Source: a virus. From it: a stretch of DNA of 63,188 nucleotides. The DNA lies in the IMG/VR virus record IMGVR_UViG_3300045988_166537. One strand, given 5' to 3'. Position 1 is the stretch's first letter; each line of letters begins with the position of its first letter. Below the pieces are notes generated by a model, which was given only the letters and a program-made list of their open reading frames with translations, ran no database searches and was not told the origin of the DNA. Both the position numbers and the translations under genes were made by a program. Shown piece after piece: positions 5,881 through 36,510 of the stretch.

Positions 5881-5906
5881 ATAAAAGGGGATGTATTTGC
5901 CGCGAG
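5881..5906 (-). promoter_or_regulatory. Conserved promoter-like element, copy 1 (weak variant)
   Basis: Minus strand reads CTCGCG GCAAATACATCCCC TTTTAT. It lies upstream of the VRR-NUC / nuclease / RNAP-like operon. Confidence 0.5.
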
Positions 5907-5990
5907 CAAAAATAATAGGGATTGTGTCTGCTGCAAAAAAAGAAGAGCCGTTGCAAATTTAACGACTCTCCTGATTGAGATAGATTATTT

Positions 5991-6251
5991 TTACTTGTCT
6001 TCTTCATTGTCATAATTATTAATGTATTTGTTCATTTTCATAGCCTTGTTAAAGACATCGTTGTCGTAATTGCACTGTGCTTTGCACCCTTCCCGAAATC
6101 CGTCTTTATGTCCAATGTTGCATCCTATAAGCAATGATATGCTTGCACACACACCGCCGTAGATACCAACAATAATTTCTTCCTTATGCTCCTTAACGTA
6201 CTCCTTTGCTGTCTCATACTTTTTCTTAGTTTTCTCTTTAAAATTACTCAT
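5991..6251 (-). CDS. Small membrane protein (86 aa)
   Basis: Track ORF trimmed to the ATG at 6251 after AAAGGAGGA. It has one TM segment, 'IIVGIYGGVCASISLLIGC'. Confidence 0.7.
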   Translation of the reverse strand: MSNFKEKTKKKYETAKEYVKEHKEEIIVGIYGGVCASISLLIGCNIGHKDGFREGCKAQCNYDNDVFNKAMKMNKYINNYDNEEDK

Positions 6252-6292
6252 AATAAAATCCTCCTTTTGAATCATTAAAAAGTTTCTATCTC

Positions 6293-6318
6293 ATTATATA
6301 AGATGTATTTGCCGCGAA
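6293..6318 (-). promoter_or_regulatory. Conserved promoter-like element, copy 2
   Basis: Minus strand reads TTCGCG GCAAATACATCTTA TATAAT. It lies about 27 nt upstream of the SD of 5991..6251. Confidence 0.7.
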
Positions 6319-6430
6319 TTGTGCAAATACTAACCGATATGTGTCATATTGTCTCGCAACTCCTCTGTATTACCATTAAGTACTTTTGTATAATCAATAC
6401 GTAAACTTAACAGAGAGGAGGTGAAACAAT

Positions 6431-6805
6431 ATGGAGACCTTTAAATACAGAATGAAAGCTAACAATCCTTTGAACAAGCTTATCAATTTCTGCACACGAT
6501 CAAACGGTGCACAATGTTGCAAATGTTATAAGCAAGCCGCCGGTGGTAAACTTGGTAATTTAGGTAAAGCTGTAGCAAAAGAGTTAGATACAGCATACAC
6601 TAAGGGAATATTAACCGGTGCTGGGATTGCCGGTATTTTAATACTTGGAGGGCAGTATGTAGCTGTACCAGCCGCTAAGAAAGTGCATAACTACATAAAT
6701 AGTAAAGTTCATAAAGAACTTCCACCACCCGAGAAAGTCGTATATATTGAGGATTATCGTCATGATGATTCTGACAATAACAACGATAACCAACAATGCA
6801 TGTAA
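6431..6805 (+). CDS. Membrane protein (124 aa), one of only two plus-strand genes (moron-like)
   Basis: GAGAGGAGGTG SD at 6414-6424. A TM segment 'GILTGAGIAGILILGG' is present. A TATAAT at 6389-6394 lies upstream. The gene is flanked by convergent terminators. Confidence 0.7.
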   Translation: METFKYRMKANNPLNKLINFCTRSNGAQCCKCYKQAAGGKLGNLGKAVAKELDTAYTKGILTGAGIAGILILGGQYVAVPAAKKVHNYINSKVHKELPPPEKVVYIEDYRHDDSDNNNDNQQCM

Positions 6806-6899
6806 ATCATTTTGTATTTCTATAGAGAGATAATAAAACTCTCATCTTCTAAAATAGGTAAAATTATTATATTAATATTTGATAGGTTAATATCCCCAT

Positions 6900-6930
6900 G
6901 GACCCAGTACAGCTTTGTTGTATTGGGTCC
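6900..6930 (+). terminator. Hairpin downstream of 6431..6805
   Basis: Arms are GGACCCAGTAC and GTATTGGGTCC (one mismatch), followed by TTAATCTT. The U tract is weak. Confidence 0.4.
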
Positions 6931-6943
6931 TTAATCTTGCCAC

Positions 6944-6982
6944 AAAAAACAAGAGACCCAGCATATTTCTATACTGAGCCTC
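6944..6982 (-). terminator. Intrinsic terminator after 6996..7250
   Basis: Minus RNA reads GAGGCUCAG-N12-CUGGGUCUC followed by UUGUUUUUUGUG. Confidence 0.65.
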
Positions 6983-6995
6983 CCGGTCCTTGATA

Positions 6996-7250
6996 CTATT
7001 TTATTAACTTGTATTCTGATATTCTCTTATGCTCGTACAGTTCATTTAATCTAGCACATATTATGTTTAACTCGTCTTCTGTACTGTCAAATCTAAATAT
7101 TCTCATGTTGTCTTTAATTGACATCTCTGCGGTAACTGTACCGCGTTTAGCTGTCCCTAATACACCCATGATAATGCCTGAAACTTGACCATGCAAAAAA
7201 TCGCAATGCAAACAATCAACTGCAATAATGTGTTTCTGTCTTTCTTCCAT
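6996..7250 (-). CDS. Hypothetical protein (84 aa)
   Basis: Track ORF trimmed to the ATG at 7250 after GAAAGGAGA. Confidence 0.7.
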   Translation of the reverse strand: MEERQKHIIAVDCLHCDFLHGQVSGIIMGVLGTAKRGTVTAEMSIKDNMRIFRFDSTEDELNIICARLNELYEHKRISEYKLIK

Positions 7251-7284
7251 AATGAATCTCCTTTCATGTTTAACAAATAGTTTC

Positions 7285-7310
7285 ATTATAGAAGATGTAT
7301 TTTTCGCGAA
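7285..7310 (-). promoter_or_regulatory. Conserved promoter-like element, copy 3
   Basis: Minus strand reads TTCGCG AAAAATACATCTTC TATAAT, embedded in the palindrome TTTTCGCGAAAA. Confidence 0.7.
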
Positions 7311-7316
7311 AATTTG

Positions 7317-7685
7317 CTAATCAAAACGACACGATGTAATACATTCCGGATAACATTCTGCACCACAATGATTCTTGCATATGGCGGGTTTATATGCCAT
7401 CAGTTTTCTTATCTCTCCTCCAAACATGTCACCTGGATATATTTCATAGCAATCCCAACATACAAACTTATCCATATATTCGTTATAGAATAATGGAGCC
7501 CCACATTTAGGGCAGAATATAGGATATTTTTCATCTCTATCAAGATAAGCTTGACTTGTAGTTAGCTCTTCTTCATCAAACTTTGCATCACAACATGTAC
7601 ATTCATATTTCTTGATTATGGAGTTATATTCTATTTCTCCTTGATCACATTCTGTACAAACCATTCCTACAAGATATTCTTTCAT
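7317..7685 (-). CDS. Multi-zinc-ribbon protein (122 aa)
   Basis: Four CxxC pairs are visible: CTEC, CTCC, CPKC and CWDC. An AAGGAGG SD is present. Confidence 0.75.
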   Translation of the reverse strand: MKEYLVGMVCTECDQGEIEYNSIIKKYECTCCDAKFDEEELTTSQAYLDRDEKYPIFCPKCGAPLFYNEYMDKFVCWDCYEIYPGDMFGGEIRKLMAYKPAICKNHCGAECYPECITSCRFD

Positions 7686-7841
7686 AATTCAAAAACCTCC
7701 TTAACTCTTACTCCTCCGTCTACTAGTTACTAACTATACTGCAATTATACTTTGACGACTGTAAAAACTAAAGAGATTTTATAATATATTATAGCTTTGT
7801 AAAGTTCGTTTCCGAGATGATAAATTTTGCTGAAAACAGCC

Positions 7842-8126
7842 CTCTGCCCGGATGCCCACTTTTATTTCCCATTTATATATATTTATATAATATTTTTTTC
7901 ATATTAATTTAAGAAAAAAAGTGGGAAAGTGGGCAGAAACCCCGCAAACCCGCATAAATACTAGGTTTTTCGCTGCCCACTTTTGTTTTTAAAAGTGGGC
8001 AAAGTGGGCAGAAAAGTGGGCAAATGGCCACTTTTTACAAAATTTTTGGGTCTGCTACCGCCTCAAAAATGGGCAAAACACCCACAAAACCGGGCAGAAG
8101 CCCAGATATTTTTGCAAAAGTGGGCA
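7842..8126. repeat. Iteron array (AAGTGGGCA) with an AT-rich core; candidate replication origin or multi-site protein-binding locus
   Basis: Direct copies start at 7919, 7927, 7993, 8002, 8014, 8067 and 8118. Inverted copies start at 7853, 7974 and 8025. The outer inverted pair is CTCTGCCCGG (7842) / CCGGGCAGA (8090). An AT-rich stretch spans 7866-7918. The interval is non-coding. Confidence 0.6.
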
Positions 8127-8140
8127 GAGATTTTTTGCTT

Positions 8141-8587
8141 TTATTTAGAGGTTGTGTAGCAACGTATACTCATTGAACCATTATCTTTGGCGTCCCAACT
8201 GATATCAAGTTCATACCTTCCATCGGCATCGAGATATCTAGCACTACCACCATCATCAGCACATACGTATTTTTCACGATCGGTAAAAATGTTACCAGCA
8301 CTTACCTTATCATTATATGCTTTATAATCATCTTGACTTGCTGGAACGACATTAGCTGTATATCTATCGCTCCTGTCAAACATAATCGACACATTTGCAT
8401 CCGAAAACATACTATTTATATCAGGTAACATAGCAGATATTTTTGAGTCTTCACTCTCACTCTCCGTACTGACACTCGCACTACTACCATTACCATCTGA
8501 ACCAGCATTATTACTATCACCACCGCATCCAACAAGTCCAACACACATAGCTCCAACTAACAAACCTATAAATAATCTCTTTTTCAT
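8141..8587 (-). CDS. Lipoprotein (148 aa)
   Basis: The signal peptide with lipobox reads 'MKKRLFIGLLVGAMCVGLVGCGG'. A GAGGAGG SD is present. Confidence 0.8.
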   Translation of the reverse strand: MKKRLFIGLLVGAMCVGLVGCGGDSNNAGSDGNGSSASVSTESESEDSKISAMLPDINSMFSDANVSIMFDRSDRYTANVVPASQDDYKAYNDKVSAGNIFTDREKYVCADDGGSARYLDADGRYELDISWDAKDNGSMSIRCYTTSK

Positions 8588-8623
8588 AAAAATCTCCTCC
8601 TCTGAAAATATAAGACTATTATA

Positions 8624-8884
8624 CTATTCGCCTACGCTATCATCAACCTGCAAATACTCATAATCGTCAGGATCAATCCAGCACCTGACAACCTCGTATC
8701 TTCTCAGAAATAGCTTGTCACCGCGCCACAACTGTCTACGTATACTACCTCGCGCTATTCCCAAAAACCTGGCCAAATGCGCTTCACTCATGATCCCAGC
8801 ACAACTACCATTATTATGTTGATCGTATACAATATAAGCCCTCATCACTGTATGCCCATCCCTACGCAATTTCATCACCACCAT
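8624..8884 (-). CDS. HTH DNA-binding protein (about 86 aa; start uncertain)
   Basis: 'SEAHLARFLGIARGSIRRQL' is helix-turn-helix-like. Candidate starts are 8896, 8884 and 8875. Confidence 0.55.
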   Translation of the reverse strand: MVVMKLRRDGHTVMRAYIVYDQHNNGSCAGIMSEAHLARFLGIARGSIRRQLWRGDKLFLRRYEVVRCWIDPDDYEYLQVDDSVGE

Positions 8885-14066: not shown

Positions 14067-14246
14067 TTATCTCTGTGCTACATTTTTCCACTGTTCATTT
14101 ATAGTTATCATCCTGTCATCTGCACTCATAAATATTAGTGCCATTCTCATGCATTTAGCACTCTGCTTCATACTTTCAATACCACCTCTAGCTACAAGTT
14201 CACTAGACCTCTCTATAAAATGATTACTTATTAATTTTTGTAACAT
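14067..14246 (-). CDS. Hypothetical protein (59 aa), not in the ORF track
   Basis: ATG at 14246 after AAAGGAGTG and TAA at 14067. It lies between promoter copy 4 and a terminator. Confidence 0.6.
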   Translation of the reverse strand: MLQKLISNHFIERSSELVARGGIESMKQSAKCMRMALIFMSADDRMITINEQWKNVAQR

Positions 14247-14263
14247 AGTTCATCACTCCTTTC

Positions 14264-14289
14264 ACTATAGAGCATGTAGACTACGCGAA
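14264..14289 (-). promoter_or_regulatory. Conserved promoter-like element, copy 4
   Basis: Minus strand reads TTCGCG TAGTCTACATGCTC TATAGT. The hexamer lies 1 nt from the SD. Confidence 0.65.
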
Positions 14290-17235: not shown

Positions 17236-17913
17236 CTACAACTTTCTACTCTTCCGTTCATCATATTCTTCTTTAGATATCTCAATCCACTTTCCCTCTT
17301 CATCGCCTTCTGGTTCTCTGAAGAATCTATCGATTTCAATTTTTTCCTGCTGACCATTCTCAGTTTTAATTGCATAAAATACTCCAACAGTATCAGAATC
17401 ACCATTCTTTTTGTCTGTTAGGAAATCCTCGCAATAAACCTTAATCGGCTTACTCGGCATATATGGCATCGTTATAGGAAACATTGCGTCAACGACACAA
17501 CTACCCAGACCCGAAGTGTATATGATACGCGGGTCATTAATGTCGACACAATACGATCTGTCATTGTCTCTGTATTTGATTGCTCCATCAGGATATACCT
17601 TCTTAAATAACGAAGGCATTCGTTTACACTGATACCATTTGAAACCGTCACTGTCATGCCATGTGCACGTATCCCAAATATCATCAGTATCCTCTATAGG
17701 TGTCAATGGCTTACCGTCTATGAGTCTGTTGAGGATACTCTGCGTCATTTTTATACTGAATCCTGAATGCCCATCTCCACATAAACTTTCAAATGCCTTT
17801 AGTGCACTCCCATAACAAGCACACCCATAATCAAACTCCCCCCTCTTTTTATCAGGGTTCTCTTTTCTACATGCAATCTCAACTTCTTTTCTTGCCCAAT
17901 CTAACATATTCAT
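17236..17913 (-). CDS. Hypothetical protein (225 aa)
   Basis: Track ORF with an AAGGAGGAG SD. Confidence 0.75.
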   Translation of the reverse strand: MNMLDWARKEVEIACRKENPDKKRGEFDYGCACYGSALKAFESLCGDGHSGFSIKMTQSILNRLIDGKPLTPIEDTDDIWDTCTWHDSDGFKWYQCKRMPSLFKKVYPDGAIKYRDNDRSYCVDINDPRIIYTSGLGSCVVDAMFPITMPYMPSKPIKVYCEDFLTDKKNGDSDTVGVFYAIKTENGQQEKIEIDRFFREPEGDEEGKWIEISKEEYDERKSRKL

Positions 17914-18142: not shown

Positions 18143-18157
18143 ATCGATCACCTCCTC

Positions 18158-18183
18158 ATTATAGAGGTTGTAAATATCGCGAC
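18158..18183 (-). promoter_or_regulatory. Conserved promoter-like element, copy 5
   Basis: Minus strand reads GTCGCG ATATTTACAACCTC TATAAT. The hexamer abuts the SD GAGGAGG. Confidence 0.65.
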
Positions 18184-18450: not shown

Positions 18451-18492
18451 ACTATATATATATATTCATAGTCTGTCATATACTTCACCTCC

Positions 18493-22832: not shown

Positions 22833-22846
22833 AAAATCACCTCCTC

Positions 22847-22872: not shown

Positions 22873-25800
22873 ACTCTGTTTGAACGGTATATCACCAGTT
22901 ACTCCAGGTGGAATATACATAAAATCCATAGGCGGGTCAGTACATACATATGGATCATCCGAAGCAAACTGCTCAAAATCACCATACTTAGATATTTCTG
23001 CTATTGCTGCATCTACCTGTTTTCTGTAGAACGACTTGTCTATAGCGTTCTCTTTTCCGATCTGTCTCACCATCTCAGATTCAAGCCATCTATATCCAGT
23101 TGATCCCGATGCCGCATAGTTCTTGCCATTATCCACACGATATAGCACACCGCCATTCTCGCCAGTCAATATCGGTGTAAACTGACCAACCCTTCCTACA
23201 AACTGTAGGTTGTGACCCGGTTCAATATCCTCAGCAAGTTTCTTAGCCTCAGGCTCAAACATTATATCTGATATCTTACCTTTCTTATAGTCACTCTCGA
23301 GTTTATCAAGCTGCTTCTCAAGCTCACTCACGTCCGGAAGTTTTTCATTGATGTCCAAATATAAAGCTCCCTTGGATACTGAAAATGTCTCACACATGTC
23401 ATCAAATACTATTGGTTCATGGCTGAACAGAGTCTTGAATACATATGGGACTGCAAACTGCTTACCTGTAGCTGTCCATTCTCCACCATGCTCAGTATTA
23501 TCACCTGGCACATAACCATACATCCTCTGACAATCTTCTGGCGACTTGTATTTTGCAATATATACCGCATCGTTTACAAGGCACATCTTTTCATATGTAG
23601 CCTCATGCTCAAATGTGTATCCGTACCTCTTACCAAAGTCCATAACGAACTTGATAATCTCTGGTGTTGCATCTGGTATCTTGATTGAGTCTGTCTTGAT
23701 ATGAGCAACCTTGAATCCACGCTCCATAACTGCATGCTTGAGATCTATCATGAACAGTGCTCCACGCTTTGCCACTATATTATCGACATTTCTATTATCT
23801 CTGAACGGATTGTCAAAACCTGCGGCTGTCAAACCATAAACTGAATTAATAGCTGTCTTGAGTGCATTTGCCAAGTCCTTATGACTCAATTCACCGTTCT
23901 TAACTTTCTCAATATACGGTCTGAGCTTACCATCCATCATTTGGTCAACTTCATCCCATGCTTTATGTTTAATACTTACACGTCCCTCTACAATATCACG
24001 GAATGCTCTAGTGTATCTGACACCAAATAAACATTCTGCTATTATTGTATGCGGATGCATTGAAGCAATATCAAGCAATGCTACGTTGCCATACATGCCA
24101 GGAAAACCCTGAGCAAAGCCACCCTCTTTTGGGTCTTCTCCTCTGTACATTGACTTGCCAAATTCATGCGTATAGCCTGGGAAATATGGAAGTAAGCTGT
24201 CCTCTTTGAACGGTACTTCTGCATGTGGCGGATTATGTGGCGCTGCCATCATCTCCGGACATGTATCTTTTAGAAATAACAGCACATCAGGCGGAAGCTC
24301 TTTCACTGGCTGCGACAAATCCCTATACATGAATTCGCTCTGAGGTTTTCTATTCTTGCCAAATATAATTCTTGTAGTCAGAGTATTTGTTGTATCGTTA
24401 GCGGTCATCTCAGCCAAATCTGCCAGAATCTGCCTTGCTGTCCAGTCTGCCTTTAAATAATAAAATGCTGCCTCTGTGGATATAACATCGTTATCACAAT
24501 ATTCAGCAACTTTCACCCATAGTTCCTTTGGTACAGGCTTATCCCATTCTAATCCAAGCTCCTGGTGTTTGATCCTCAGTAATAACTTTCTGAGTTCATC
24601 ACTTATCTTAGATTTTGGGTCGTGAGCAACCTTTGACATCTCTATCTCGAGCTTCTTCAAACTCTTTTTATTGGTAGACGATGCAAAATCATAAATATCA
24701 GTGTACGATATGTTATACGCCTCGCCAAAGAATGCGTTATTATCATGATTTATTATCCTCTGTGATAATCTGTAGAGCTGCTCGTTGTCATATCCCATCA
24801 TAATTGCAAACAGAATATGATTATCGTATCGCCTACAGTTAAATCCGATCAGCCTATACCCAGTTATCAACTTCTCAATATCTATAGGCTTTGGATTGAT
24901 CATACGAACCATCGAATTTCCTTCACCAGCAATCTCCCAGTTCACCAAGCATAAGTTCGGAAATATCTCTATATCATAAAATGCTATAGGTTTCTCCGTG
25001 TCCTCAGTATTTTCAGAAGGTTCATCCGACTTGAACTTCATTTCTTTTACCTGCTTAATACAAAAGTCTGCATTATTTGTACTTGACATGGCAAACGCCA
25101 GCACAGCGTCGAACATATCACTTACGTCATAATGCAGACCTTGATTATAAGCATCGTCTAATATTTGTCGTATAAAACAAATACTGGGCTTAGTAGCTGG
25201 GTGTATCTCTTTATTGAGATTCCTTTTTATCAGCTGTCTAAGCCCTCGCTCGCTCTTTATTTTATCTTTTCCTACCGTGTTTTTCTCCTCCTTCAAAGGT
25301 AATCCAGAGTTAATAGTCGCTATAGGAATATCGTTACACTTGGTAAGCATACGTCTTAATGAACTATTACCCGTAAATACCTTTATTTCAATATCCTCAT
25401 CATAAATACGACTAAGCATTGAAACGTCCCCATCATAAATATAATGAAGATGTATGCCAGCTCCACTCTTACTGAGTTCTGCATATGTAGCAGGCCACTT
25501 ACTTGCCGCTTCAAGATTTCTCTCGAAGGATTTTTTACCATCATCTCCTTTTTTATCGAAGTCTATACCTATCAGATTAGTTTTGACATCTTGGACTTTC
25601 ACGTAATGCAGTTTATGAGTATCGAGCTCTTTCAGTTTAGTTTTACACTTATCCCATGATATCGTCGGAGTTTCGTTACTTGACGCATATTGCGCTGGAC
25701 AATCCGCGAGTTCATCGTCAAGTAAACTATGTTGTTCTTTAAACCTCAACCATGCAGGAATACTCGTTTCAGCAACTTCTGTCTTCTCTGTAGGTTCCTC

Positions 25801-27102
25801 ACGCTCAAAAATATCAGTTCTAAATCCAGTATAGTAACTTCTTACCCTCGCGCCGTCATCAAGTGCTATACGATCAGAATACTCTCTGAAATAGTTCTTG
25901 AGTTCTTCTTTGAAACTTCTCTGAGAATATGGATAAGGCACCTTTGCATCATCACAATACAACTTGTACATTTCCCACGCCTCTTTGAGTGTTGTACTGT
26001 CATGCTTCTTAAATACATGGTATGCACTCAATATAAAGTTGTAGAAATCATTTGACGCTCCCAGCATCGCAACTGGCACATAGTCGTCATATCTTCCTGG
26101 ATTTTCCAAATATACTTCCTTGCAATGCCAGGCAATAGCCCCAAGCTCAAACTTAACTTTTGCCATCGCCTCTTTGTATTCTTTTTGGCTGAGCTTATCC
26201 CCTGATGGAGATACATCTATCAGACGTCTTAACAAACCCGATTTACCATCGGTGATCCTTACTGGTTTGTTTGTACCCATGATAAGAAAACACTTAAAAC
26301 TGTTTGTATATGTACTTTTGAACTTCTCGTTTACCGTCATCTGCTCATGTGACACCAAACTGTTTATCTTCGTGTTATCCTCAATCCTGGATAGATCGCC
26401 GTCATGCTCTATTGCTACAAGCGGATTCGATCTGAATGCCTCCAGAGCAAATACATTCGTAGCAGAACCCAATGCCTTTGAATCAAATACCGAATAATAC
26501 CCATCAAATAACATCTGAATAATATTCAAAACTGTTGATTTACCTGTTCCGGCAGCACCATACAACACTACAAACTTCTGAATAGTCTTGCTATCGCCAG
26601 TTATGATCGAACCGATAGCCCATTCAATCTTGCGACGCTCCTCCTCAGAATATAAAGTAGATAATAGCTTATCCCATGATGAATAGTCGCCCGCCTCAAG
26701 AGGATACGGCAGTCGTTTACTTGCATAATCCTCTTTTCTGGCGGCATCATTTGAAAATATAAGTTTTTCATCCAACATATGGAACGAATCTCTGGACTGT
26801 TTCTGACAATATTTATGAAACTTATCAATCATCCCAGTATCGGCATCCCACATATACATAGGTTTTGCTAAATCTGTAAATCTGTCTCTATTCTCCTCAT
26901 AATATGTTTTTATTTCCTGATCTATGAGACGGACAACATCTTCTTCATCAGTCGACCAAAGTTTATGTTCTTCGTCCCATATAGCGTAGAAATCCTGACC
27001 GCGAATCATGAGATCCTTACTCTTCTTGATGATGAATTTAGGATATATCTCAACCTCGCCACGTTTGGGCGATCTGGTTGCGATAGTCATAAAATCTAAC
27101 AT
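22864..27102 (-). CDS. SF3 helicase - AEP primase - family B DNA polymerase fusion (1412 aa)
   Basis: The helicase part has Walker A 'GAAGTGKST', Walker B 'VAIEHDGD' and 'LIMGTN...SGLLRR'. The AEP part has 'GIDFD' and 'SKSGAGIHLHY'. The PolB part has ExoI 'FYDIEIF', ExoII 'FNCRRYDNHIL', ExoIII 'YCDNDV', motif A 'DIASMHPH', motif B 'KTAINSVYG' and motif C 'IKTDSI'. Confidence 0.8.
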   Translation of the reverse strand: MLDFMTIATRSPKRGEVEIYPKFIIKKSKDLMIRGQDFYAIWDEEHKLWSTDEEDVVRLIDQEIKTYYEENRDRFTDLAKPMYMWDADTGMIDKFHKYCQKQSRDSFHMLDEKLIFSNDAARKEDYASKRLPYPLEAGDYSSWDKLLSTLYSEEERRKIEWAIGSIITGDSKTIQKFVVLYGAAGTGKSTVLNIIQMLFDGYYSVFDSKALGSATNVFALEAFRSNPLVAIEHDGDLSRIEDNTKINSLVSHEQMTVNEKFKSTYTNSFKCFLIMGTNKPVRITDGKSGLLRRLIDVSPSGDKLSQKEYKEAMAKVKFELGAIAWHCKEVYLENPGRYDDYVPVAMLGASNDFYNFILSAYHVFKKHDSTTLKEAWEMYKLYCDDAKVPYPYSQRSFKEELKNYFREYSDRIALDDGARVRSYYTGFRTDIFEREEPTEKTEVAETSIPAWLRFKEQHSLLDDELADCPAQYASSNETPTISWDKCKTKLKELDTHKLHYVKVQDVKTNLIGIDFDKKGDDGKKSFERNLEAASKWPATYAELSKSGAGIHLHYIYDGDVSMLSRIYDEDIEIKVFTGNSSLRRMLTKCNDIPIATINSGLPLKEEKNTVGKDKIKSERGLRQLIKRNLNKEIHPATKPSICFIRQILDDAYNQGLHYDVSDMFDAVLAFAMSSTNNADFCIKQVKEMKFKSDEPSENTEDTEKPIAFYDIEIFPNLCLVNWEIAGEGNSMVRMINPKPIDIEKLITGYRLIGFNCRRYDNHILFAIMMGYDNEQLYRLSQRIINHDNNAFFGEAYNISYTDIYDFASSTNKKSLKKLEIEMSKVAHDPKSKISDELRKLLLRIKHQELGLEWDKPVPKELWVKVAEYCDNDVISTEAAFYYLKADWTARQILADLAEMTANDTTNTLTTRIIFGKNRKPQSEFMYRDLSQPVKELPPDVLLFLKDTCPEMMAAPHNPPHAEVPFKEDSLLPYFPGYTHEFGKSMYRGEDPKEGGFAQGFPGMYGNVALLDIASMHPHTIIAECLFGVRYTRAFRDIVEGRVSIKHKAWDEVDQMMDGKLRPYIEKVKNGELSHKDLANALKTAINSVYGLTAAGFDNPFRDNRNVDNIVAKRGALFMIDLKHAVMERGFKVAHIKTDSIKIPDATPEIIKFVMDFGKRYGYTFEHEATYEKMCLVNDAVYIAKYKSPEDCQRMYGYVPGDNTEHGGEWTATGKQFAVPYVFKTLFSHEPIVFDDMCETFSVSKGALYLDINEKLPDVSELEKQLDKLESDYKKGKISDIMFEPEAKKLAEDIEPGHNLQFVGRVGQFTPILTGENGGVLYRVDNGKNYAASGSTGYRWLESEMVRQIGKENAIDKSFYRKQVDAAIAEISKYGDFEQFASDDPYVCTDPPMDFMYIPPGVTGDIPFKQSIA

Positions 27103-28287: not shown

Positions 28288-29226
28288 TCATGCACATACA
28301 TAATCGGTAATTGGCCCGTCTACATTGAAATCCAACAATACCGCCTTCTCATATCCATTAACGAATCTACGTTTAGCAGCATTGTTGACATCAAATATGC
28401 CGAAATCCACAAAATTGTCACCGATTGGATTCTTCTCATCATAAATCCAGCCAACCTCATGGCCGATCTTAGTTCCCTGGAAACCAAGCATACTGAATAC
28501 ATCATTCAGATATAAATATCCCTGTGCTTTGAGCTTTTCGTTCGCCCAGTTCTGCTGCTGTCTGAGGAACCATAACGTCTGCTCTGGGTCATCATTCCAG
28601 CCAGTATTGCCACAGTCAAATATTCTTGTATATGCCGATAGTGTATTTGGATCTACAACATCATATTCCTCGGTAACAACTGTCTGAGTACCATCTTCAT
28701 TCTGCACCACAGTCTCCATGGTATTGTGCTGGATATTGTATCTGAGTTCCTGATCCACTTCTTTTCCGAACTTCTCAACAACTCTGTTTCTATACTCCTT
28801 GAATGACTTATTTACAGTCATATAAGCAGTAGCAAGAGCTGCATTTCTCTGTCTGAGAATCCTGTTAGATGTAACTATGCTACCTATTGATAATGCGCCA
28901 AGCAATATGGATGGCCCATAGAGCTTCGTAAGCTCCCAACCAGTCTGCATATAGATAGTTGTAAGGCCCTTCTTACAGTCCTTCATCGTGTACTCTGTCT
29001 CTTCGCCGTCTTCGATAGCCTTGATATCTTCATGAACAGAATCTAGCTTATTATGAGATTCCTCCATAACATCGTCAAGTTTTCTTGTAGCCACGCATGC
29101 CCATATTGCGCTGCCTACCGTACCTACTACTCCAACGATCATGCATATCTCCGGGCTATGCTGCCTGGTCTTAAATATAGCTTTATTGGCTGCTACTGCC
29201 ATCTTTGAGAAAAATTTACTCTTCAT
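28288..29226 (-). CDS. Membrane protein, paralogue A of a three-member family (DUF6353-like), 312 aa
   Basis: It shares a two-TM hairpin, 'NRILRQRNAALATAY...EYRNRVVEKFG' and 'GHEVGW' blocks with 31457..32266 and 32432..33253. Confidence 0.7.
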   Translation of the reverse strand: MKSKFFSKMAVAANKAIFKTRQHSPEICMIVGVVGTVGSAIWACVATRKLDDVMEESHNKLDSVHEDIKAIEDGEETEYTMKDCKKGLTTIYMQTGWELTKLYGPSILLGALSIGSIVTSNRILRQRNAALATAYMTVNKSFKEYRNRVVEKFGKEVDQELRYNIQHNTMETVVQNEDGTQTVVTEEYDVVDPNTLSAYTRIFDCGNTGWNDDPEQTLWFLRQQQNWANEKLKAQGYLYLNDVFSMLGFQGTKIGHEVGWIYDEKNPIGDNFVDFGIFDVNNAAKRRFVNGYEKAVLLDFNVDGPITDYVCA

Positions 29227-31075: not shown

Positions 31076-31381
31076 CTACTTAGCCTTTTTCATGTCGACA
31101 ACTGTCTCTTCGTCCTCGTCGATTTCATCTTCTGGCTCAGGCAGTTTCTCAACCTTGTAACCCTTCTTCTCCAGATTCTTGATCCTCCTCTGAAGTATCT
31201 CATTTCTTCTTGATATAGCAAATGCGACTAATCCGCCGACTGCTGCTATTCCAAGTCCAATAACGATTCCTCCAGCTGTAGATCCGCCCTCTGTTGAATC
31301 AGTGTTATCATAGTTTGACTCGCTAACCTCGTTTACCTCATTCTCCATCTCTGTGTTCATGATTTCTTCGTTGTTCTCCAT
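31076..31381 (-). CDS. Small membrane protein (101 aa)
   Basis: It has an acidic N-terminus, one TM segment and a charged C-terminus. A TAGGAGGAT SD is present. Confidence 0.75.
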   Translation of the reverse strand: MENNEEIMNTEMENEVNEVSESNYDNTDSTEGGSTAGGIVIGLGIAAVGGLVAFAISRRNEILQRRIKNLEKKGYKVEKLPEPEDEIDEDEETVVDMKKAK

Positions 31382-31424
31382 AGTTTTATCCTCCTAAAAT
31401 ATAATTTATTTGACTTATAGTCTC

Positions 31425-31450
31425 ATAATATGACTTGTAATTTTCGCGAA
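31425..31450 (-). promoter_or_regulatory. Conserved promoter-like element, copy 8
   Basis: Minus strand reads TTCGCG AAAATTACAAGTCA TATTAT. It lies about 40 nt upstream of the ATG. Confidence 0.7.
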
Positions 31451-31456: not shown

Positions 31457-32266
31457 TCAGTGATACATGGAATATTCGTACCTCGGAGCTACACGATAGC
31501 CTATTCCAAGACACGGACGACCATCCTTTGCAATATCACCAGTGATATCTAGCTGAATGAGTCCATCTCTACTTACATTCCAGCCAATCTCATCACCGAT
31601 TGATGTCCTTTCCAACCCAATCTTATCGTAGAAGTCGTTCAAAGATACATAGTCACAACTATTCAGTATCTCATTCAGGTCATTTACTGCTGCGCGAAGT
31701 GTTTCTCTGTCGGATTTAAAATATCTTTGAGATATATAATCCAGACAAAGCTGCTCTCCGTCCCCCGCTACGATAACCTGTGTATTTGGCGCTGGTGCTT
31801 TCTCGATTTTATCTTTAACAACTGCCTTTGCTATCTCTTTCTCTTTTTCCTCACCAATAGTCTCGATAACCTTGTTCTTATACTCATGCAATGCTGCTTC
31901 AGACATAGAGTATGCTGTAGCTATAGCTGCATTCCGCTTAGCATTCACATTGTTGGCACATATAATACATACCACTGATGTGGTGAACGATATAGCTGTT
32001 GGAATGTAGCACTTCCACGTTGCCTGTATGATTTCTTTCTTTGTGAGCTCCACTTCTACAGGGATATCTTCGACCTCTTCCTCCATGAGCTCGTTTATCT
32101 TGGCCTCTTTTACCTCTTCGACTTTCTTATTTGCAGCTATTGTGCCTTTGATAGCAAATATAACTGCACCTGCTGCTGATGTAATCCCCAAGCCTATCAG
32201 TATTGCAGGGCTATTTTTTCCAGCTTTGTTAGCCATTTTATTTATGGCTTTCGTGAATTTATTCAT
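31457..32266 (-). CDS. Membrane protein, paralogue B (DUF6353-like), 269 aa
   Basis: Trimmed to the ATG at 32266 after GAAGGAGAA. 'NVNAKRNAAIATAY...EYKNKVIETIG' and 'GDEIGW' are present. Confidence 0.7.
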   Translation of the reverse strand: MNKFTKAINKMANKAGKNSPAILIGLGITSAAGAVIFAIKGTIAANKKVEEVKEAKINELMEEEVEDIPVEVELTKKEIIQATWKCYIPTAISFTTSVVCIICANNVNAKRNAAIATAYSMSEAALHEYKNKVIETIGEEKEKEIAKAVVKDKIEKAPAPNTQVIVAGDGEQLCLDYISQRYFKSDRETLRAAVNDLNEILNSCDYVSLNDFYDKIGLERTSIGDEIGWNVSRDGLIQLDITGDIAKDGRPCLGIGYRVAPRYEYSMYH

Positions 32267-32431: not shown

Positions 32432-33253
32432 TTACCTCCTTGCGTCTCTCGAAAAAGATTCTATTGTGTAATCGCCTGATACCGAAACATATGACGCGTC
32501 TCGCCATTCGTCCAGGGCATCTTCATCTGGCCCATACATATAATCCACCTCATATATTGGTTCGCCATTCATTATCTCCTTTGTTTTTCTATGATGAATG
32601 TCGATCCAATACATACCACTATCAATACTCCAACCAATGTCATCACCATTTGAAATTGGTGAAAGGCCTACAAACTCTAACCATTCATTAAAAGTTACGT
32701 ATCCACGCATTACATAATTACGATTGATGTGGTACTCAGCATCCATGAGTTCCCGCTCGTACATATCAAAATGCTGATTGGAAATAGGTTCATAGAAATG
32801 GAATATCTTATCTGGAGTCGTAGCGCCTATCTGATGATAATTGCAATATTCCCTGATGACGTCGCCCATTATCTCCTTATCAACATCTTCACCATATCTC
32901 TTTACAACTTCTCCGCGATACTGAGCTAAGGTTTCCCTTACCATTGTGTATGCTGCCATAAGCTGTGCCTGTCTCTGATGGTTAATGACATTTGAACCAA
33001 TGATACAAGCAATAGTTGACACTGCGATAACACCTGTTGGAACATAAACTGGTGTTGCAATAACTATTTTTTCCTTAGTTGTGAGTGGCTCGCCTTTCCG
33101 AAGTTCTTCTTTCTTCAGTTTCCTCATTGCTTTGGGTGTTTCTTTCGCTGCAAATATACCCGTAGCAATAACACCCACTGTGCCTAATACTGTAAGTATC
33201 GTGGGCGAATGTTTTCGTACAAATATCTTTGCACATGGTACTAATCCTTTCAT
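32432..33253 (-). CDS. Membrane protein, paralogue C (DUF6353-like), 273 aa
   Basis: Trimmed to the ATG at 33253 after AAAGGAGGA. 'NVINHQRQAQLMAAY...QYRGEVVKRYG' and 'GDDIGW' are present. Confidence 0.7.
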   Translation of the reverse strand: MKGLVPCAKIFVRKHSPTILTVLGTVGVIATGIFAAKETPKAMRKLKKEELRKGEPLTTKEKIVIATPVYVPTGVIAVSTIACIIGSNVINHQRQAQLMAAYTMVRETLAQYRGEVVKRYGEDVDKEIMGDVIREYCNYHQIGATTPDKIFHFYEPISNQHFDMYERELMDAEYHINRNYVMRGYVTFNEWLEFVGLSPISNGDDIGWSIDSGMYWIDIHHRKTKEIMNGEPIYEVDYMYGPDEDALDEWRDASYVSVSGDYTIESFSRDARR

Positions 33254-33493: not shown

Positions 33494-33509
33494 AATTGTC
33501 ACCTCCTTC

Positions 33510-33535
33510 ATTATAGAGACCGTAAAACTCGCGAA
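33510..33535 (-). promoter_or_regulatory. Conserved promoter-like element, copy 9
   Basis: Minus strand reads TTCGCG AGTTTTACGGTCTC TATAAT. The hexamer lies 2 nt from the SD. Confidence 0.65.
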
Positions 33536-33587: not shown

Positions 33588-33803
33588 CTAATGATTCCGC
33601 CATACATCTTCTCTAGCGAAAAACATCGGTATTGCTATAGCTGTCAAGAATACTGAACCTGTTCCATCTCCAGTAGCTAATATTACTATAAGACCTACTA
33701 GTAACATGCACAATGCAAATATCTTATTACGCCATGTCCGCTGTAAGTTCATAACTATACGCTCCCATAATGTCAGTTTTCGTTCTTTTGCTAAAGTCCT
33801 CAT
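33588..33803 (-). CDS. Small membrane protein (71 aa, 2 TM)
   Basis: Track ORF with an AAGGAGGAA SD. Confidence 0.75.
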   Translation of the reverse strand: MRTLAKERKLTLWERIVMNLQRTWRNKIFALCMLLVGLIVILATGDGTGSVFLTAIAIPMFFAREDVWRNH

Positions 33804-33831
33804 CTGTCATTCCTCCTTAAAATATATGTTC

Positions 33832-33857
33832 ATAAAGGGGGATGCAATTTTCGCGAA
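33832..33857 (-). promoter_or_regulatory. Conserved promoter-like element, copy 10 (weak hexamer)
   Basis: Minus strand reads TTCGCG AAAATTGCATCCCC CTTTAT. Confidence 0.55.
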
Positions 33858-34549: not shown

Positions 34550-34568
34550 CATTTTGGTTCTGTCCTAA

Positions 34569-34952
34569 TTACTTTCTTTTAAAACTTGTGATTTCTCTCC
34601 ACGCCTGCTTTCCAGATTCAGTTGAAGCGATATTTCCTTCTGTCTCAAATTTGACATTTGTTATGACCCCCCAGATCAAAAGACCAGCATTAGCCAGTAT
34701 TCCAATTCCTGTCAGAGCATGTCCGATCCATCTACTGTGCTTTTCAGATTTATCTGATTCAGCTTTAAGCGCAAGCTCAGCTTCACTCTTAGCTCTATCA
34801 GCCTCAATCTTCTCAAGCTCAATGTATTTGTCGGTAAGCTCTCCAATTCCTCGAACTGCTGGATTGTAGTCTTCTGAATTCATGTCGATATCATTCAAAG
34901 CATCAATCTCTTCCAGAATCTCACCTTTTAACTTCTCCTTAACTTCCTGCAT
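34569..34952 (-). CDS. Coiled-coil membrane protein (127 aa)
   Basis: Track ORF with an AAGGAGGAT SD. The TM segment reads 'LTGIGILANAGLLIWGVI'. Confidence 0.75.
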   Translation of the reverse strand: MQEVKEKLKGEILEEIDALNDIDMNSEDYNPAVRGIGELTDKYIELEKIEADRAKSEAELALKAESDKSEKHSRWIGHALTGIGILANAGLLIWGVITNVKFETEGNIASTESGKQAWREITSFKRK

Positions 34953-34992
34953 AGTAAAATCCTCCTTAAAAATATAATTTTCCTACATTACC

Positions 34993-35018
34993 ATAATAGG
35001 ACCTGTTATTTGCGCGAA
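34993..35018 (-). promoter_or_regulatory. Conserved promoter-like element, copy 11
   Basis: Minus strand reads TTCGCG CAAATAACAGGTCC TATTAT. The TTCGCG lies within the last codons of 35006..35230. Confidence 0.7.
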
Positions 35019-35291: not shown

Positions 35292-35326
35292 GAAAATAAA
35301 AGGAAGAGCCTCTTAAGACTCCTCCT
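35292..35326 (-). terminator. Intrinsic terminator after 35313..35558
   Basis: Minus RNA reads GGAGGAGUCUU-AAGAGGCUCUUCC followed by UUUUAUUUUC. The stop codon lies inside the stem. Confidence 0.6.
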
Positions 35327-35558
35327 CTATAAATATAACTGATCCTTGAATTTTTGTTTTATACAATGTTTTTCCTAGAAGTTTTGCCATTCTATTTGCT
35401 GAAATAATTGTGGTGCAGGTTATGCAAACCTTATCAGCCCCCACGAAAGTTTCGTCCATTCCATAAATCGTAAACTTTCTGGAGTTGATGAAATCACATA
35501 TATCAACCGCAAAAATCGTATCTGCAAAAATTGTAATGTTTTTCTTTCTATTAAACAT
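35313..35558 (-). CDS. Hypothetical protein (81 aa)
   Basis: Track ORF with an AAGGAGGAG SD. Confidence 0.7.
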   Translation of the reverse strand: MFNRKKNITIFADTIFAVDICDFINSRKFTIYGMDETFVGADKVCITCTTIISANRMAKLLGKTLYKTKIQGSVIFIEEES

Positions 35559-35598
35559 AACTACTCCTCCTTAAATAAAAAATCTTAATCAATATTTC

Positions 35599-35624
35599 AT
35601 TATAGGAGTTGTTATTCTCGCGAA
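35599..35624 (-). promoter_or_regulatory. Conserved promoter-like element, copy 12
   Basis: Minus strand reads TTCGCG AGAATAACAACTCC TATAAT. It starts inside the U tract of the preceding terminator. Confidence 0.7.
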
Positions 35625-35654
35625 AATAAAAAGAGGACTCCATGTGGAATCCTC
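35622..35654 (-). terminator. Intrinsic terminator after 35662..35838
   Basis: Minus RNA reads GAGGAUUCCA-CA-UGGAGUCCUC followed by UUUUUAUUUUC. Confidence 0.7.
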
Positions 35655-35661
35655 GTCTTTT

Positions 35662-35838
35662 CTACTTACTATAAATCTTCTCTTCAAGTCCTGCTACCGT
35701 TCCCTGTAATTCTATCAATGTGTCTGTAAGTAACTCGATTAATTCGTCCTGAGCTTTAACCTTAGTCTCCAACTCACTTACTTTCCCAATTAACTTGCCT
35801 ACTTCGCATTTTAACTTGATATAATTATTCTCGTCCAT
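35662..35838 (-). CDS. Coiled-coil protein (58 aa), not in the ORF track
   Basis: ATG at 35838 after AAGGAGGAA and TAG at 35662. Heptad-like 'KVSELETKVKAQDELIELL' is present. Confidence 0.6.
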   Translation of the reverse strand: MDENNYIKLKCEVGKLIGKVSELETKVKAQDELIELLTDTLIELQGTVAGLEEKIYSK

Positions 35839-35873
35839 AATAGTTTCCTCCTTAAATGAAAGTTTATTGTTTC

Positions 35874-35899
35874 ATTATAGGAGCTGTAGATTACGCGAA
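35874..35899 (-). promoter_or_regulatory. Conserved promoter-like element, copy 13
   Basis: Minus strand reads TTCGCG TAATCTACAGCTCC TATAAT. Confidence 0.7.
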
Positions 35900-35901
35900 T
35901 A

Positions 35902-36048
35902 TTATTTGTTAGTTTTTGTGTAATGACGTTCTGCTATAGCTCGCTTCTCACCATCAAAATATGCATATCGCAATATTATCTCAGTATCGGTTTCTATGCG
36001 TCCGCCAGTTAGCTTGTCGTCAGTTGTTACATCTTTATTACACATCAT
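35902..36048 (-). CDS. Hypothetical protein (48 aa), not in the ORF track
   Basis: ATG at 36048 after GGAGGTGA and TAA at 35902. It is preceded by a canonical SigA-type promoter. Confidence 0.45.
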   Translation of the reverse strand: MMCNKDVTTDDKLTGGRIETDTEIILRYAYFDGEKRAIAERHYTKTNK

Positions 36049-36072
36049 ATAATCACCTCCTAGTGTATCGTG

Positions 36073-36100
36073 ATTATAACATCATACAGATAAAAGACAA
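36073..36100 (-). promoter_or_regulatory. Canonical sigma-70/SigA-type promoter
   Basis: Minus strand reads TTGTCT, 16 nt, then TATAAT, with a TGT immediately upstream (TGTTATAAT, an extended -10). It lacks the TTCGCG element. Confidence 0.5.
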
Positions 36101-36112
36101 GACTTGGCAACA

Positions 36113-36152
36113 GGAAAAAACAAAGGAGTTGTTAAAAATATCAACAACCCCT
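36113..36152 (-). terminator. Intrinsic terminator after 36165..36458
   Basis: Minus RNA reads AGGGGUUGUUGA-UAUUU-UUAACAACUCCU followed by UUGUUUUUUCC. Confidence 0.7.
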
Positions 36153-36164
36153 CTGCACTGCATC

Positions 36165-36458
36165 TTATAGTATTATCTCATACATACCTTTCTCGTAAGC
36201 ATTATATATTATTATTGGTGGTAGTCTCCTACCATCAAATTCAATATTCACCTCTAATCCGTCCACAGTTCTTGGTTTTATGACTGTTGTTGTCTTTCCA
36301 TCTGGATCAATAACAACCACTCCCCAATAGTCCAGACCATCTACAAAGCAAATATCGAATCTCTGATATTCGTCTACCCAATCAATGTTTAATCCGATAC
36401 CTACGTGCGTAGATTTCTGCGATACTGTTACAAATGTTGCCTTGTTTACTGCTTCCAT
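36165..36458 (-). CDS. Hypothetical protein (97 aa)
   Basis: Track ORF with an AAGGAGGAA SD. Confidence 0.7.
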   Translation of the reverse strand: MEAVNKATFVTVSQKSTHVGIGLNIDWVDEYQRFDICFVDGLDYWGVVVIDPDGKTTTVIKPRTVDGLEVNIEFDGRRLPPIIIYNAYEKGMYEIIL

Positions 36459-36484
36459 AACAATTCCTCCTTTGTTTTTTATTC

Positions 36485-36510
36485 ATATAAGAGGTTGTTA
36501 TTTTCGCGTC
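36485..36510 (-). promoter_or_regulatory. Conserved promoter-like element, copy 14 (variant)
   Basis: Minus strand reads GACGCG AAAATAACAACCTC TTATAT. The CGCG lies within the last codons of 36498..36917. Confidence 0.55.

Follow-up and report, generated by a model that had tools for sequence, protein, structure and literature searches.

A repeated 28-nt promoter-like element in a temperate phage genome and its proposed reader, a two-barrel phage RNA polymerase

The 63,188-nt viral genome IMGVR_UViG_3300045988_166537 from IMG/VR (the window, by which we mean this whole stretch of DNA) carries exactly 14 copies of a 28-nt element, all of them on the minus (coding) strand and between 5.9 and 36.5 kb. 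Their consensus is TTCGCG-nnAawTACAnyyC-TATAAT-GA, in which the hexamer can be generalised to TWTWAT. The element is very probably a real transcription signal specific to this phage group, and the reading that we prefer, with a probability of about two in three, is that the copies are promoters specific to the phage's own polymerase, a two-barrel RNA polymerase homologue of 1000 amino acids (aa) that would read them directly. That a phage polymerase can have promoters of its own is well established from T7, N4 and P23-45. What would be new here is the polymerase family, which is uncharacterised, very abundant and so far without a known promoter, and to which the element would give a sharply defined class of promoters that recurs throughout the family and predicts the first transcribed nucleotide. 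We found no description of the element in the searchable literature; an earlier mention may exist in Garneau 2008 (phage 1706) or Summer 2011 (ReqiPepy6 and ReqiPoco6).

A discrete family of elements in the window and its relatives

The first-pass annotation of this genome, made from the letters alone, had listed 14 minus-strand sites, all of which we found in the places it gave, and it had described their layout accurately. The TTCGCG-type box and the hexamer are separated by a spacer of 14 nt in 14 of 14 copies, the box varies to CTCGCG, GTCGCG, ATCGCG and GACGCG, and the spacer contains wACr and ends in CyC. The hexamer is TATAAT in seven copies, TATAGT in two, TATTAT in two and TTTTAT, CTTTAT or TTATAT in the others. 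Two points of that description have to be amended. The conserved block does not end at the hexamer, since a further 2 nt are conserved (the first is G in 13 copies and the second A in 11, out of 14), and the palindrome TTCGCGAA, said to be frequent in the box, is present but complete in just 3 of the 14 copies and is not conserved in relatives, which have TTCGCA, GACGCG or ATTTTA instead.

Searching the window for TCGCG-N14-TATAAT with at most one mismatch gave 12 matches where 1.17 would be expected, and 11 of the 12 lie on the minus strand; none of 100 shuffles gave 12. A looser scan combined with direct reading recovered all 14 copies, including the weak ones at 5881, 33832 and 36485. When a 28-nt position-weight matrix (PWM) was built from the 14 copies, these scored 27.8 to 39.6 bits (19.5 to 38.0 in leave-one-out scoring), and no equally good match was found elsewhere or on the other strand: the next minus-strand site was below 8 bits, the best plus-strand site reached 9.3 and the best of 30 Markov simulations 15.2. 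The copies thus form a discrete family, as their scores lie far above those of any background site. The same matrix found no copy at 0-5.8 kb or at 37-63 kb, in agreement with the visual scan of the genome ends made at first. CGCG, correctly described as scarce in this genome, occurs 45 times (64 to 93 expected), and the element accounts for 14 of the 45.

The copies are intergenic or overlap the preceding stop codon by up to 28 nt, and each lies 12 to 43 nt upstream of an ATG that is preceded by a strong Shine-Dalgarno (SD) sequence. With start codons at that distance and behind strong SDs, the idea that the messages are leaderless finds no support. At 12 of the 14 copies the organization is that of a cassette, made up of the element, one small orphan open reading frame (ORF; 55 to 127 aa) and a hairpin with a T-run; none of the seven cassette ORFs scanned had a PHROG match. 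Terminator-like sites are enriched about 2.5-fold in the window (22 versus 9.3 expected; 25 versus 8.6). There are also longer gene blocks with one copy upstream, such as the replication block from 31 to 23 kb, and the larger blocks past a first hairpin have no promoter copy of their own. Where a single copy serves a whole block, transcription would have to pass the first hairpin, so that such hairpins would be expected to attenuate or to let only part of the transcripts through.

A conserved block so placed might act in RNA, as a processing site, a stability element of the 5' untranslated region or a translation signal. Its restriction to the coding strand, its closeness to SDs and the leader GAGACCCCTAyGAAAGG shared by Gordonia, Rhodococcus and Streptomyces phages would suit such a role. 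However, the 14 copies show no consistent secondary structure and share none (mean folding z = -0.04), and a hairpin or RNA-structure explanation was rejected on these grounds. In addition, several copies stand directly behind strong terminator hairpins and would often remain untranscribed from upstream, the spacing of about 10 bp between conserved patches (see below) fits recognition of duplex DNA from one face, and a conserved purine right behind an A/T-rich hexamer is what one typically sees where transcription initiates. We give a function at the RNA level almost no weight.

To follow the element in relatives, 136 gut phage and prophage loci (2.1 Mb; polymerase identity of 51 to 100%) were scanned with the window PWM, which gave 268 matches on the polymerase-coding strand and 3 on the opposite strand. 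In 113 of the 117 loci with enough sequence upstream of the polymerase, a copy lies 836 to 1456 nt (median, 871) from the polymerase start and precedes an endonuclease-exonuclease-polymerase operon. The same arrangement is found at copy 1 of the window, and the earlier proposal that this copy drives the polymerase operon is supported. The geometry is also the same in cross-phylum relatives, in which the polymerase is only 40 to 49% identical, and the element was present in 8 of 8 complete or near-complete genomes tested. It reads TTCGCG-TAAATTACAnGGGC-TATAAT-GA in Mudcat (Arthrobacter), TTCGCA-nnnATTACAcGCCC-TATAAT-GAGACCCCTAyGAAAGG in Secretariat (Gordonia), ATCGCA-nAAAAAACACgCCC-TATAAT-GAGACCCCTAyGAAAGG in ReqiPoco6 (Rhodococcus) and CTCGCA-AGTTTTnCAnGCnn-TATAGT-GAGACCCCTAC in Scap1 (Streptomyces), the last three sharing the form yTCGCA-...ACAcGCCC-TATAAT-GAGACCCCTAyGAAAGG. 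Outside the Actinobacteria it reads GACGCG-AAAAAnnCAGnnTn-CTTTAT-GG in FP_oengus (Faecalibacterium) and, in two Lactococcus phages, ATTTTA-nnTTTTACATACCC-TATAAT-GA (P118) and TyCACA-nGTTTTACATnnnC-TATAGT-AGAAAGAAGG (1706, whose 3' part is also given as AGA).

In every relative genome the element is on the coding strand, with 0 or 1 match on the other, and the copies cluster at the start of the non-structural arm, with one more preceding the polymerase operon. Two phages without the polymerase had no element: Lactococcus phage sk1, which has annotated early promoters of the canonical TTGACA-17-TATAAT type, gave a best score of 8.3 (at least 27 for true sites), and Arthrobacter phage Laroye, which has the same host strain as Mudcat, one of 9.2 (at least 37). 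Judged by this distribution, the element goes with the polymerase family and is not peculiar to one phage or one host. The cassette structure of the window recurs in FP_oengus, whose hairpins form their own sequence family directly upstream of the next copy (23 versus 6.7 expected). In this phage (locus L082) the family of terminator-like hairpin repeats, GGAGCTTACGAGAAATCGTAGGCTCT followed by a T-run, extends over 2448-8703, with several members just upstream of the next copy.

Strand bias and conservation also bear on the possibility that the elements are not promoters but operators or regulatory sites of a phage DNA-binding protein, used for example in global repression of the lysogen. The box is palindromic (TTCGCGAA) in three copies, the phage is temperate (integrase at 37705-38934; relatives are prophages in Clostridia), and no separate repressor-operator system was recognised among the ~45 window proteins scanned, which cover about half of the small ORFs. 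Nevertheless, the element is asymmetric and strand-specific (268 versus 3), the palindrome gives way to TTCGCA, GACGCG or ATTTTA in relatives, and strictly lytic relatives such as Mudcat, Secretariat and 1706 have retained the element. Beside the copies there is no other promoter-like signal, sigma-70-type sites are neither enriched nor coincident with them, and many copies are wedged between a terminator and an SD with no room for another promoter. In view of the strand specificity and of a palindrome that relatives do not share, a palindromic operator was rejected, and operators of any kind seem very improbable.

The hexamer and the predicted start site

A more serious alternative to direct reading by the phage polymerase is that these are host sigma-A promoters without a -35, in which the hexamer would act as a -10 while a phage protein bound to the CGC and ACA patches recruited or appropriated the host polymerase in a MotA/AsiA-like manner. 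The recruiting protein could even be the 1000-aa protein, with its helix-turn-helix (HTH) domains acting as a transcription factor. A form of this reading, host holoenzyme with a MotA-like factor or an operator at TTCGCGAA, had been put forward in the first-pass annotation. It agrees with the hexamer being TATAAT, TATAGT or TATTAT in 11 of the 14 window copies and always TATAAT or TATAGT in actinobacterial and lactococcal phages, with an upstream box centred near -30 relative to such a -10, with the host-type intrinsic terminators that end the units and with the sigma-70 region 4-like HTHs of the 1000-aa protein.

The sites of the relatives point in another direction. Among 210 unique sites the invariant positions are C3 G4 C5, A13 C14 A15, C20, T21, T23, A25, T26 and G27, whereas at position 2 of the hexamer T (53%) outnumbers A (only 38%), with G at the remaining 9%; position 6 is T in 94%. 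The commonest hexamers are TTTTAT (86 sites) and TATTAT (42 sites), with just 18 sites having TATAAT. Position 2 is the equivalent of the flipped-out -11A required by sigma-70-type factors, and it is A in 11 of 14 window copies but in 0 of 13 FP_oengus sites. A TTGACA-like -35 hexamer 16 to 18 nt upstream is absent, and 0 of the 14 copies were called by a sigma-70 scan. Neither the early half of the window (57 versus 72.1 expected; 68 versus 65.5) nor the early region of FP_oengus (11 versus 9.1 expected) showed an enrichment of sigma-70-type sites. Furthermore, conservation runs unbroken across the nominal spacer into the transcribed side, where it covers GA and, in the Gordonia, Rhodococcus and Streptomyces phages, 17 nt (GAGACCCCTAC in Scap1), none of which a host promoter needs. 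Because the A at position 2 is mostly missing in relatives, there is no -35 and conservation extends into the transcribed side, the hexamer is not a sigma-70/sigma-A -10. The conserved patches CGC, ACA and C-TWTWAT-G are spaced by about 10 bp, which suggests one protein reading one face of the duplex.

What lies immediately downstream helps to place the start. In five window copies, as already noticed in the first-pass annotation, the only SD begins 0 to 3 nt past the hexamer (for example, TATAGT-GGAGGTGA and TATAAT-GAGGAGGTGA), and a comparable layout, with the SD 0 to 5 nt past the hexamer, is found at 34 of the 210 relatives' sites. One of the five, the copy at 33508-33535, is directly behind a strong hairpin with a T-run and is thus unlikely to depend on transcripts that arrive from upstream. 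In FP_oengus, a full-length tRNA (NC_047916.1, 2936-3005; Rfam score of 47.9 bits, gathering score of 29) starts 2 nt past the hexamer of the copy at 2908-2935 (locus L082) and is the sole cargo before the next copy at 3032. Other tRNAs near copies have uninformative gaps (7 nt in ReqiPoco6 and 37 to 38 nt in four gut loci). A start 6 to 8 nt downstream, as expected for a host promoter, would delete the only SD at the five window copies and the 34 relatives' sites and truncate the tRNA; a start at the conserved G fits all of these cases. The base right after the hexamer is G in 94% of the relatives' sites, followed by purines, and we infer that transcription starts at this G, directly 3' of the hexamer, or within 1 to 2 nt of it.

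The tRNA-like gene of FP_oengus has a shortened anticodon loop, in which ARAGORN reports a 2-nt "anticodon," and is without RefSeq annotation.

Three further points weigh against recruitment of the host enzyme. The same 28-bp design is kept in phages whose hosts belong to two phyla and use different promoters, no MotA- or AsiA-like protein was found among the scanned window proteins, and the catalytic loop of the 1000-aa protein is invariant, which argues that this protein polymerises and does more than bind DNA. Together with the loss of the palindrome in relatives, they leave a host sigma-A promoter as an unlikely explanation.

A two-barrel polymerase as the proposed reader

The single-subunit protein that we propose as the reader (1967-4969, minus strand) had been considered at first, in one of three readings, as the enzyme of a T7-style promoter spanning the start site. 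Of the earlier readings this is the best supported as regards a start-spanning promoter for this polymerase, but the polymerase itself is not T7-like; that assignment was rejected, since the ORF has no Pfam RNA_pol match and a two-barrel fold. On sequence and model evidence, it is a two-barrel polymerase of the QDE-1/YonO type with an HTH at each end (N-terminal at about aa 100-130 and C-terminal at about aa 960-997), and it looks like a real enzyme with a predicted polymerase activity. It belongs to phrog_4291, "RNA-dependent RNA polymerase" (E = 0; PHROGs), and its Pfam matches are only HTH/sigma-70 region 4-like, near residues 106-128 and 959-997. The motif ADFDGDT (aa 528-534) is invariant in an alignment of 28 sequences (A1), and its DFDGD core (aa 529-533) is invariant also in a cross-phylum alignment of 8 (A2). 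An AlphaFold (AF2) model with a predicted local distance difference test (pLDDT) value of 74.8 had plant RDR2 as its best match (probability of 1.0) and, after it, only the largest subunits of cellular RNA polymerases, with low TM-scores (~0.23); a sequence search against solved structures returned marginal HTH matches only.

No near-identical DNA match to the polymerase gene was found among deposited phages, and the family is large: metagenomes yield at least 8000 clusters of it at 90% identity, and 251 deposited phage genomes encode a member. It ranges over gut Clostridia, Faecalibacterium, Lactococcus and five actinobacterial genera, and the HTHs are retained in all lineages. This polymerase has been described as the signature gene of a phage supercluster spanning actinobacterial and Firmicutes phages, with Streptomyces BI, Gordonia DJ, related Arthrobacter and Rhodococcus clusters, Lactococcus 1706-like phages and Faecalibacterium FP_oengus as members; HHpred ties it to the eukaryotic RNA-dependent RNA polymerase family, the DxDGD catalytic motif is present and there is an HTH at each end (bioRxiv 10.1101/842583). 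The phage 1706 protein represents one of five distantly related YonO-like families (PMC2919709).

In the mechanism that we propose, the polymerase would recognise the contiguous block of about 28 bp with its own HTH at each end. The block would offer three patches, namely the CGC box, the ACA patch and C-TWTWAT-G, each about a helical turn from the next; the A/T-rich hexamer would be melted, and RNA synthesis would begin at the G 3' of the hexamer or within 1 to 2 nt. The hexamer would then be roughly -6 to -1, which is the T7-type arrangement, and no -10 element. Each promoter would drive a short early unit, typically one small orphan gene followed by a hairpin and T-run, and copy 1 would drive the endonuclease-exonuclease-polymerase operon. 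That the polymerase binds the element, and which of its domains reads which patch, is what we infer. It is the only conserved core protein with DNA-binding domains, and scans of the ~45 window proteins with Pfam and PHROG gave no sigma factor, MotA/AsiA-like protein, repressor or other clear regulator. A set of 30 further window proteins, part of this total, likewise contained no candidate for another reader.

Several observations weigh against the polymerase as reader. It co-occurs with the whole core of the supercluster, including a full-length primase-polymerase found in 252 phage records with the same host profile, and no relatives with the replication module but without the polymerase exist in the phage collection. 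With such perfect co-occurrence, presence or absence cannot single out the polymerase, and its role as reader is a plausibility argument because the primase-polymerase and other core genes share its distribution. Polymerase activity, too, is predicted for every member of the family. The hexamers of the window, actinobacterial and lactococcal phages are perfect or near-perfect TATAAT or TATAGT, usable by host sigma-A in principle, and the units end in hairpin and T-run terminators typical of host polymerase, signals to which T7 polymerase also responds. We found no clean co-variation between the HTH recognition helix and the upstream box in eight lineages. There is only the anecdote of P118, whose promoters are without the CGC box and whose N-terminal recognition helix has SPGSVT where others have SESSVR; box positions 1, 2 and 6 vary within genomes, so only CGC is specified. 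A temperate phage would also need a first polymerase on induction, and no obvious host-type promoter was found for the polymerase operon. Lastly, the anticodon loop of the FP_oengus tRNA is abnormal, and read-through from the upstream copy could supply this transcript as well.

In its workings the element resembles T7-class promoters, of which it fails to be a member because the polymerase is of the wrong type. T7, T3 and SP6 promoters are likewise rigid contiguous blocks (~23 to 28 bp) repeated many times on the coding strand, without -35/-10 logic and with an upstream specificity region whose sequence varies by lineage. In T7 the A/T-rich stretch TATA abuts the purine start GGGAGA, as TWTWAT abuts GA(R)A or GAGACC here. 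In contrast to the right-hand, Pol A-like T7 enzyme, however, this polymerase has a two-barrel fold with a DFDGD loop; the element reaches further upstream, with the CGC box near -24 from a start site deduced from sequence, and it is probably read by HTH domains instead of a specificity loop.

The element would rather belong with the promoters of single-subunit two-barrel phage polymerases (YonO, crAss gp66 and P23-45 gp64/gp96). Thermus phage P23-45 has a virion polymerase, gp96, and a non-virion one, gp64, with AT-rich and GC-rich promoter motifs (bioRxiv 10.1101/2022.12.01.518664). As in that phage, where motifs lie upstream of pre-early or early genes and one enzyme of the pair enters the cell with the virion, a single-polypeptide two-barrel polymerase is accompanied here by a motif, presumably its own, upstream of early genes, and the motif is common to relatives that encode the enzyme. 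The two systems differ in that no sequence relationship is detectable, gp96 and gp64 are without terminal HTHs, the motifs are different, and starts and occupancy in P23-45 were measured by ONT-cappable-seq and ChIP-seq, the promoter role of our element being predicted from the DNA. YonO of the Bacillus prophage SPbeta is also a single-chain two-barrel phage polymerase of about 100 kDa, which transcribes a late operon from one mapped start and whose promoter sequence was explicitly left open in 2017 (PMC5467207). The present phage, in contrast, has 14 copies with a clear consensus in its non-structural half, and no HTHs have been reported for YonO. Neither the fused HTHs nor the 28-bp tripartite layout of the element has a described counterpart in the searchable literature.

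T4 middle promoters share with the element a box near -30 in place of the -35 and a TATAAT-like hexamer downstream. They require a true sigma-70 -10 and start 6 to 8 nt downstream of it, unlike the element, which can do without the -11A equivalent and has SDs and a tRNA right next to its hexamer; MotA/AsiA homologues were absent from the scanned proteins. Early promoters for a possibly virion-delivered phage polymerase also recall the N4 virion RNA polymerase. N4 promoters are DNA hairpins, unlike the element, which has no significant structure (mean z = -0.04).

Timing depends on how the enzyme reaches the cell. With a packaged and injected enzyme the elements would be true early promoters, and their absence from the structural half would be accounted for. 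Without packaging they would be middle promoters, for which the host polymerase has to express the enzyme beforehand. The full scheme, a self-sufficient sigma-independent polymerase that recognises double-stranded DNA promoters through fused HTHs, is packaged in the virion and injected for the early cassettes and, in temperate members, feeds an autocatalytic loop through the operon copy, is a tentative idea that we think has less than an even chance of being correct. If true, silencing the polymerase alone would silence all early promoters in the lysogen, and a transcription strategy, possibly with a lysogeny switch, would be common to thousands of gut Clostridia phages and to actinobacteriophages. 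HTHs fused to a minimal two-barrel core may play a part analogous to that of sigma. If the preferred reading of the element holds, "RNA-dependent RNA polymerase" would be a database label in need of correction, the transcription units of many gut phages would be easier to annotate, and orthogonal polymerase-promoter pairs could become available for synthetic biology in Gram-positive bacteria. The sharp 28-bp consensus and the predicted start make enzyme activity, promoter recognition and timing testable, and several hosts are culturable.

Two side observations concern the polymerase protein. Residues 24-41 have the motif L-x-HYG-xx-R-x-SGRYP-[W/Y]-GSG, invariant across phyla save for P118 (Y for W), and lie within residues 1-48, modelled as disordered (pLDDT of <50); the motif could be a packaging, cleavage or interaction signal. 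In the phage 1706 record (EU081845.1) the homologue orf75 (52082-55171) is labelled "structural protein," as are orf62 and orf71 of the non-structural region, and ReqiPoco6 gp106 (GU580942.1) copies the label. As read in the record alone, the 1706 label looks like an experimental virion assignment, and it would suit an enzyme that comes with the virion and acts on early promoters.

Individual copies and the surrounding genome

Coordinates of the copies are those of the 28-mers in plus-strand numbering, all copies being on the minus strand, and scores are in PWM bits. Copy 14 (36483-36510, GACGCG-AAAATAACAACCTC-TTATAT-GA, 29.4 bits), with a predicted start at G 36484, precedes an ORF at 36165-36458 and a hairpin with a T-run at 36156-36120. 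Downstream of copy 13 (35872-35899, TTCGCG-TAATCTACAGCTCC-TATAAT-GA, 38.3 bits) are an ORF at 35662-35838 and a terminator-like hairpin at 35654-35633. Copy 12 (35597-35624, TTCGCG-AGAATAACAACTCC-TATAAT-GA, 38.0 bits) has a hairpin and T-run directly upstream and is followed by an ORF at 35313-35558 and a hairpin at 35328-35299, and copy 11 (34991-35018, TTCGCG-CAAATAACAGGTCC-TATTAT-GG, 34.7 bits) by an ORF at 34569-34952 and a hairpin at 34550-34520. Copy 10 (33830-33857, TTCGCG-AAAATTGCATCCCC-CTTTAT-GA, 33.7 bits) precedes an ORF at 33588-33803, after which the strong hairpin and T-run at 33584-33545 lie directly upstream of copy 9 (33508-33535, TTCGCG-AGTTTTACGGTCTC-TATAAT-GA, 30.1 bits), whose SD, GAAGGAGGTGA, starts at the first nucleotide past the hexamer.

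Copy 8 (31423-31450, TTCGCG-AAAATTACAAGTCA-TATTAT-GA, 35.3 bits) precedes an ORF at 31076-31381 and a hairpin at 31051-31019 and is the sole copy upstream of the replication block of about 8.5 kb, the last gene of which is the primase-polymerase. At copy 7 (22845-22872, ATCGCG-TAGATTACAGCCTC-TATAAT-GA, 36.9 bits) the SD GAGGAGGTGA abuts the hexamer, with an ORF at 22620-22832 and a hairpin at 22614-22587 downstream. The first nucleotide past the hexamer of copy 6 (18491-18518, TTCGCG-TAAAGAACAGCCTC-TATAGT-GG, 35.1 bits) is the start of the SD GGAGGTGA, and an SD also abuts the hexamer of copy 5 (18156-18183, GTCGCG-ATATTTACAACCTC-TATAAT-GA, 35.8 bits), behind which come an ORF at 17978-18142 and a hairpin at 17974-17938. 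Copy 4 (14262-14289, TTCGCG-TAGTCTACATGCTC-TATAGT-GA, 33.2 bits), which is also present in four relatives (L001, L005, L010 and L011), has the SD GAAAGGAGTGA directly after it, then an ORF at 14067-14246 and a hairpin at 14057-14026. Copy 3 (7283-7310, TTCGCG-AAAAATACATCTTC-TATAAT-GA, 39.6 bits) is the closest to the consensus and precedes an ORF at 6996-7250 and a hairpin at 6985-6950; for copy 2 (6291-6318, TTCGCG-GCAAATACATCTTA-TATAAT-GA, 33.9 bits) these are at 5991-6251 and 5972-5941.

Copy 1 (5879-5906, CTCGCG-GCAAATACATCCCC-TTTTAT-AG, 27.8 bits) is upstream of the operon for an HNH endonuclease, an exonuclease and the RNA polymerase, all on the minus strand. The first gene encodes the HNH-type endonuclease (5481-5852, phrog_93), the start of which is taken to be the ATG 28 nt past the hexamer. 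The second encodes a RecB-like exonuclease of the PD-(D/E)XK type (4973-5539, phrog_3953, E = 1e-72) and is found at this place in every relative. The gene that comes right after the polymerase encodes a conserved 90-aa protein (1694-1966, minus strand; phrog_4303, function unassigned). Its counterparts (~85 to 90 aa) are directly 3' of the polymerase in 8 of 8 genomes compared, with the invariant residues T..DNP..P..W..D..GY..R (alignment A3), and the protein may be a partner of the polymerase.

As a whole, the window (about 63 kb) represents the genome of a temperate phage of the siphovirus type, in which all genes are on the minus strand except the integrase (37705-38934). Structural genes occupy 63-39 kb, and the genome also has a long array of small genes, the primase-polymerase (22864-27102), a helicase and a single-stranded DNA-binding protein, with the endonuclease-exonuclease-polymerase operon at the far end. 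Prophage relatives are found in Hungatella, Enterocloster, Cuneatibacter and many Lachnospiraceae and Oscillospiraceae assemblies, so the host is probably a member of the gut Clostridia.

Right after the small ORF 3' of the polymerase there is a non-coding stretch of about 300 nt (1384-1693, minus strand) with G8 and C5 runs, in a position that matches the cohesive ends of Mudcat and ReqiPoco6. It is probably a cohesive-end (cos) or packaging site, in which case the window is a circular permutation of the virion DNA. Within it, at about 1487-1514 (minus strand) and some 110 nt upstream of the first gene past the putative cos region, we noticed the motif-like site ACAAATCCC-TATAGT-AA, with one extra base between ACA and the hexamer; it is confined to near-identical relatives, and a late promoter class was not supported. 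The DNA just 3' of the integrase gene has four short repeats (TTCGTACA and TTCCTACA) at about 38955-39030, which could be arm-type sites of attP to which the integrase binds. The early region also encodes a homologue of Tad3, the type I Thoeris inhibitor (17236-17913, minus strand; Pfam E = 1e-32), and three paralogous DUF6353 genes (32432-33253, 31457-32266 and 28288-29226, all minus strand), a family that likewise has three members in FP_oengus.

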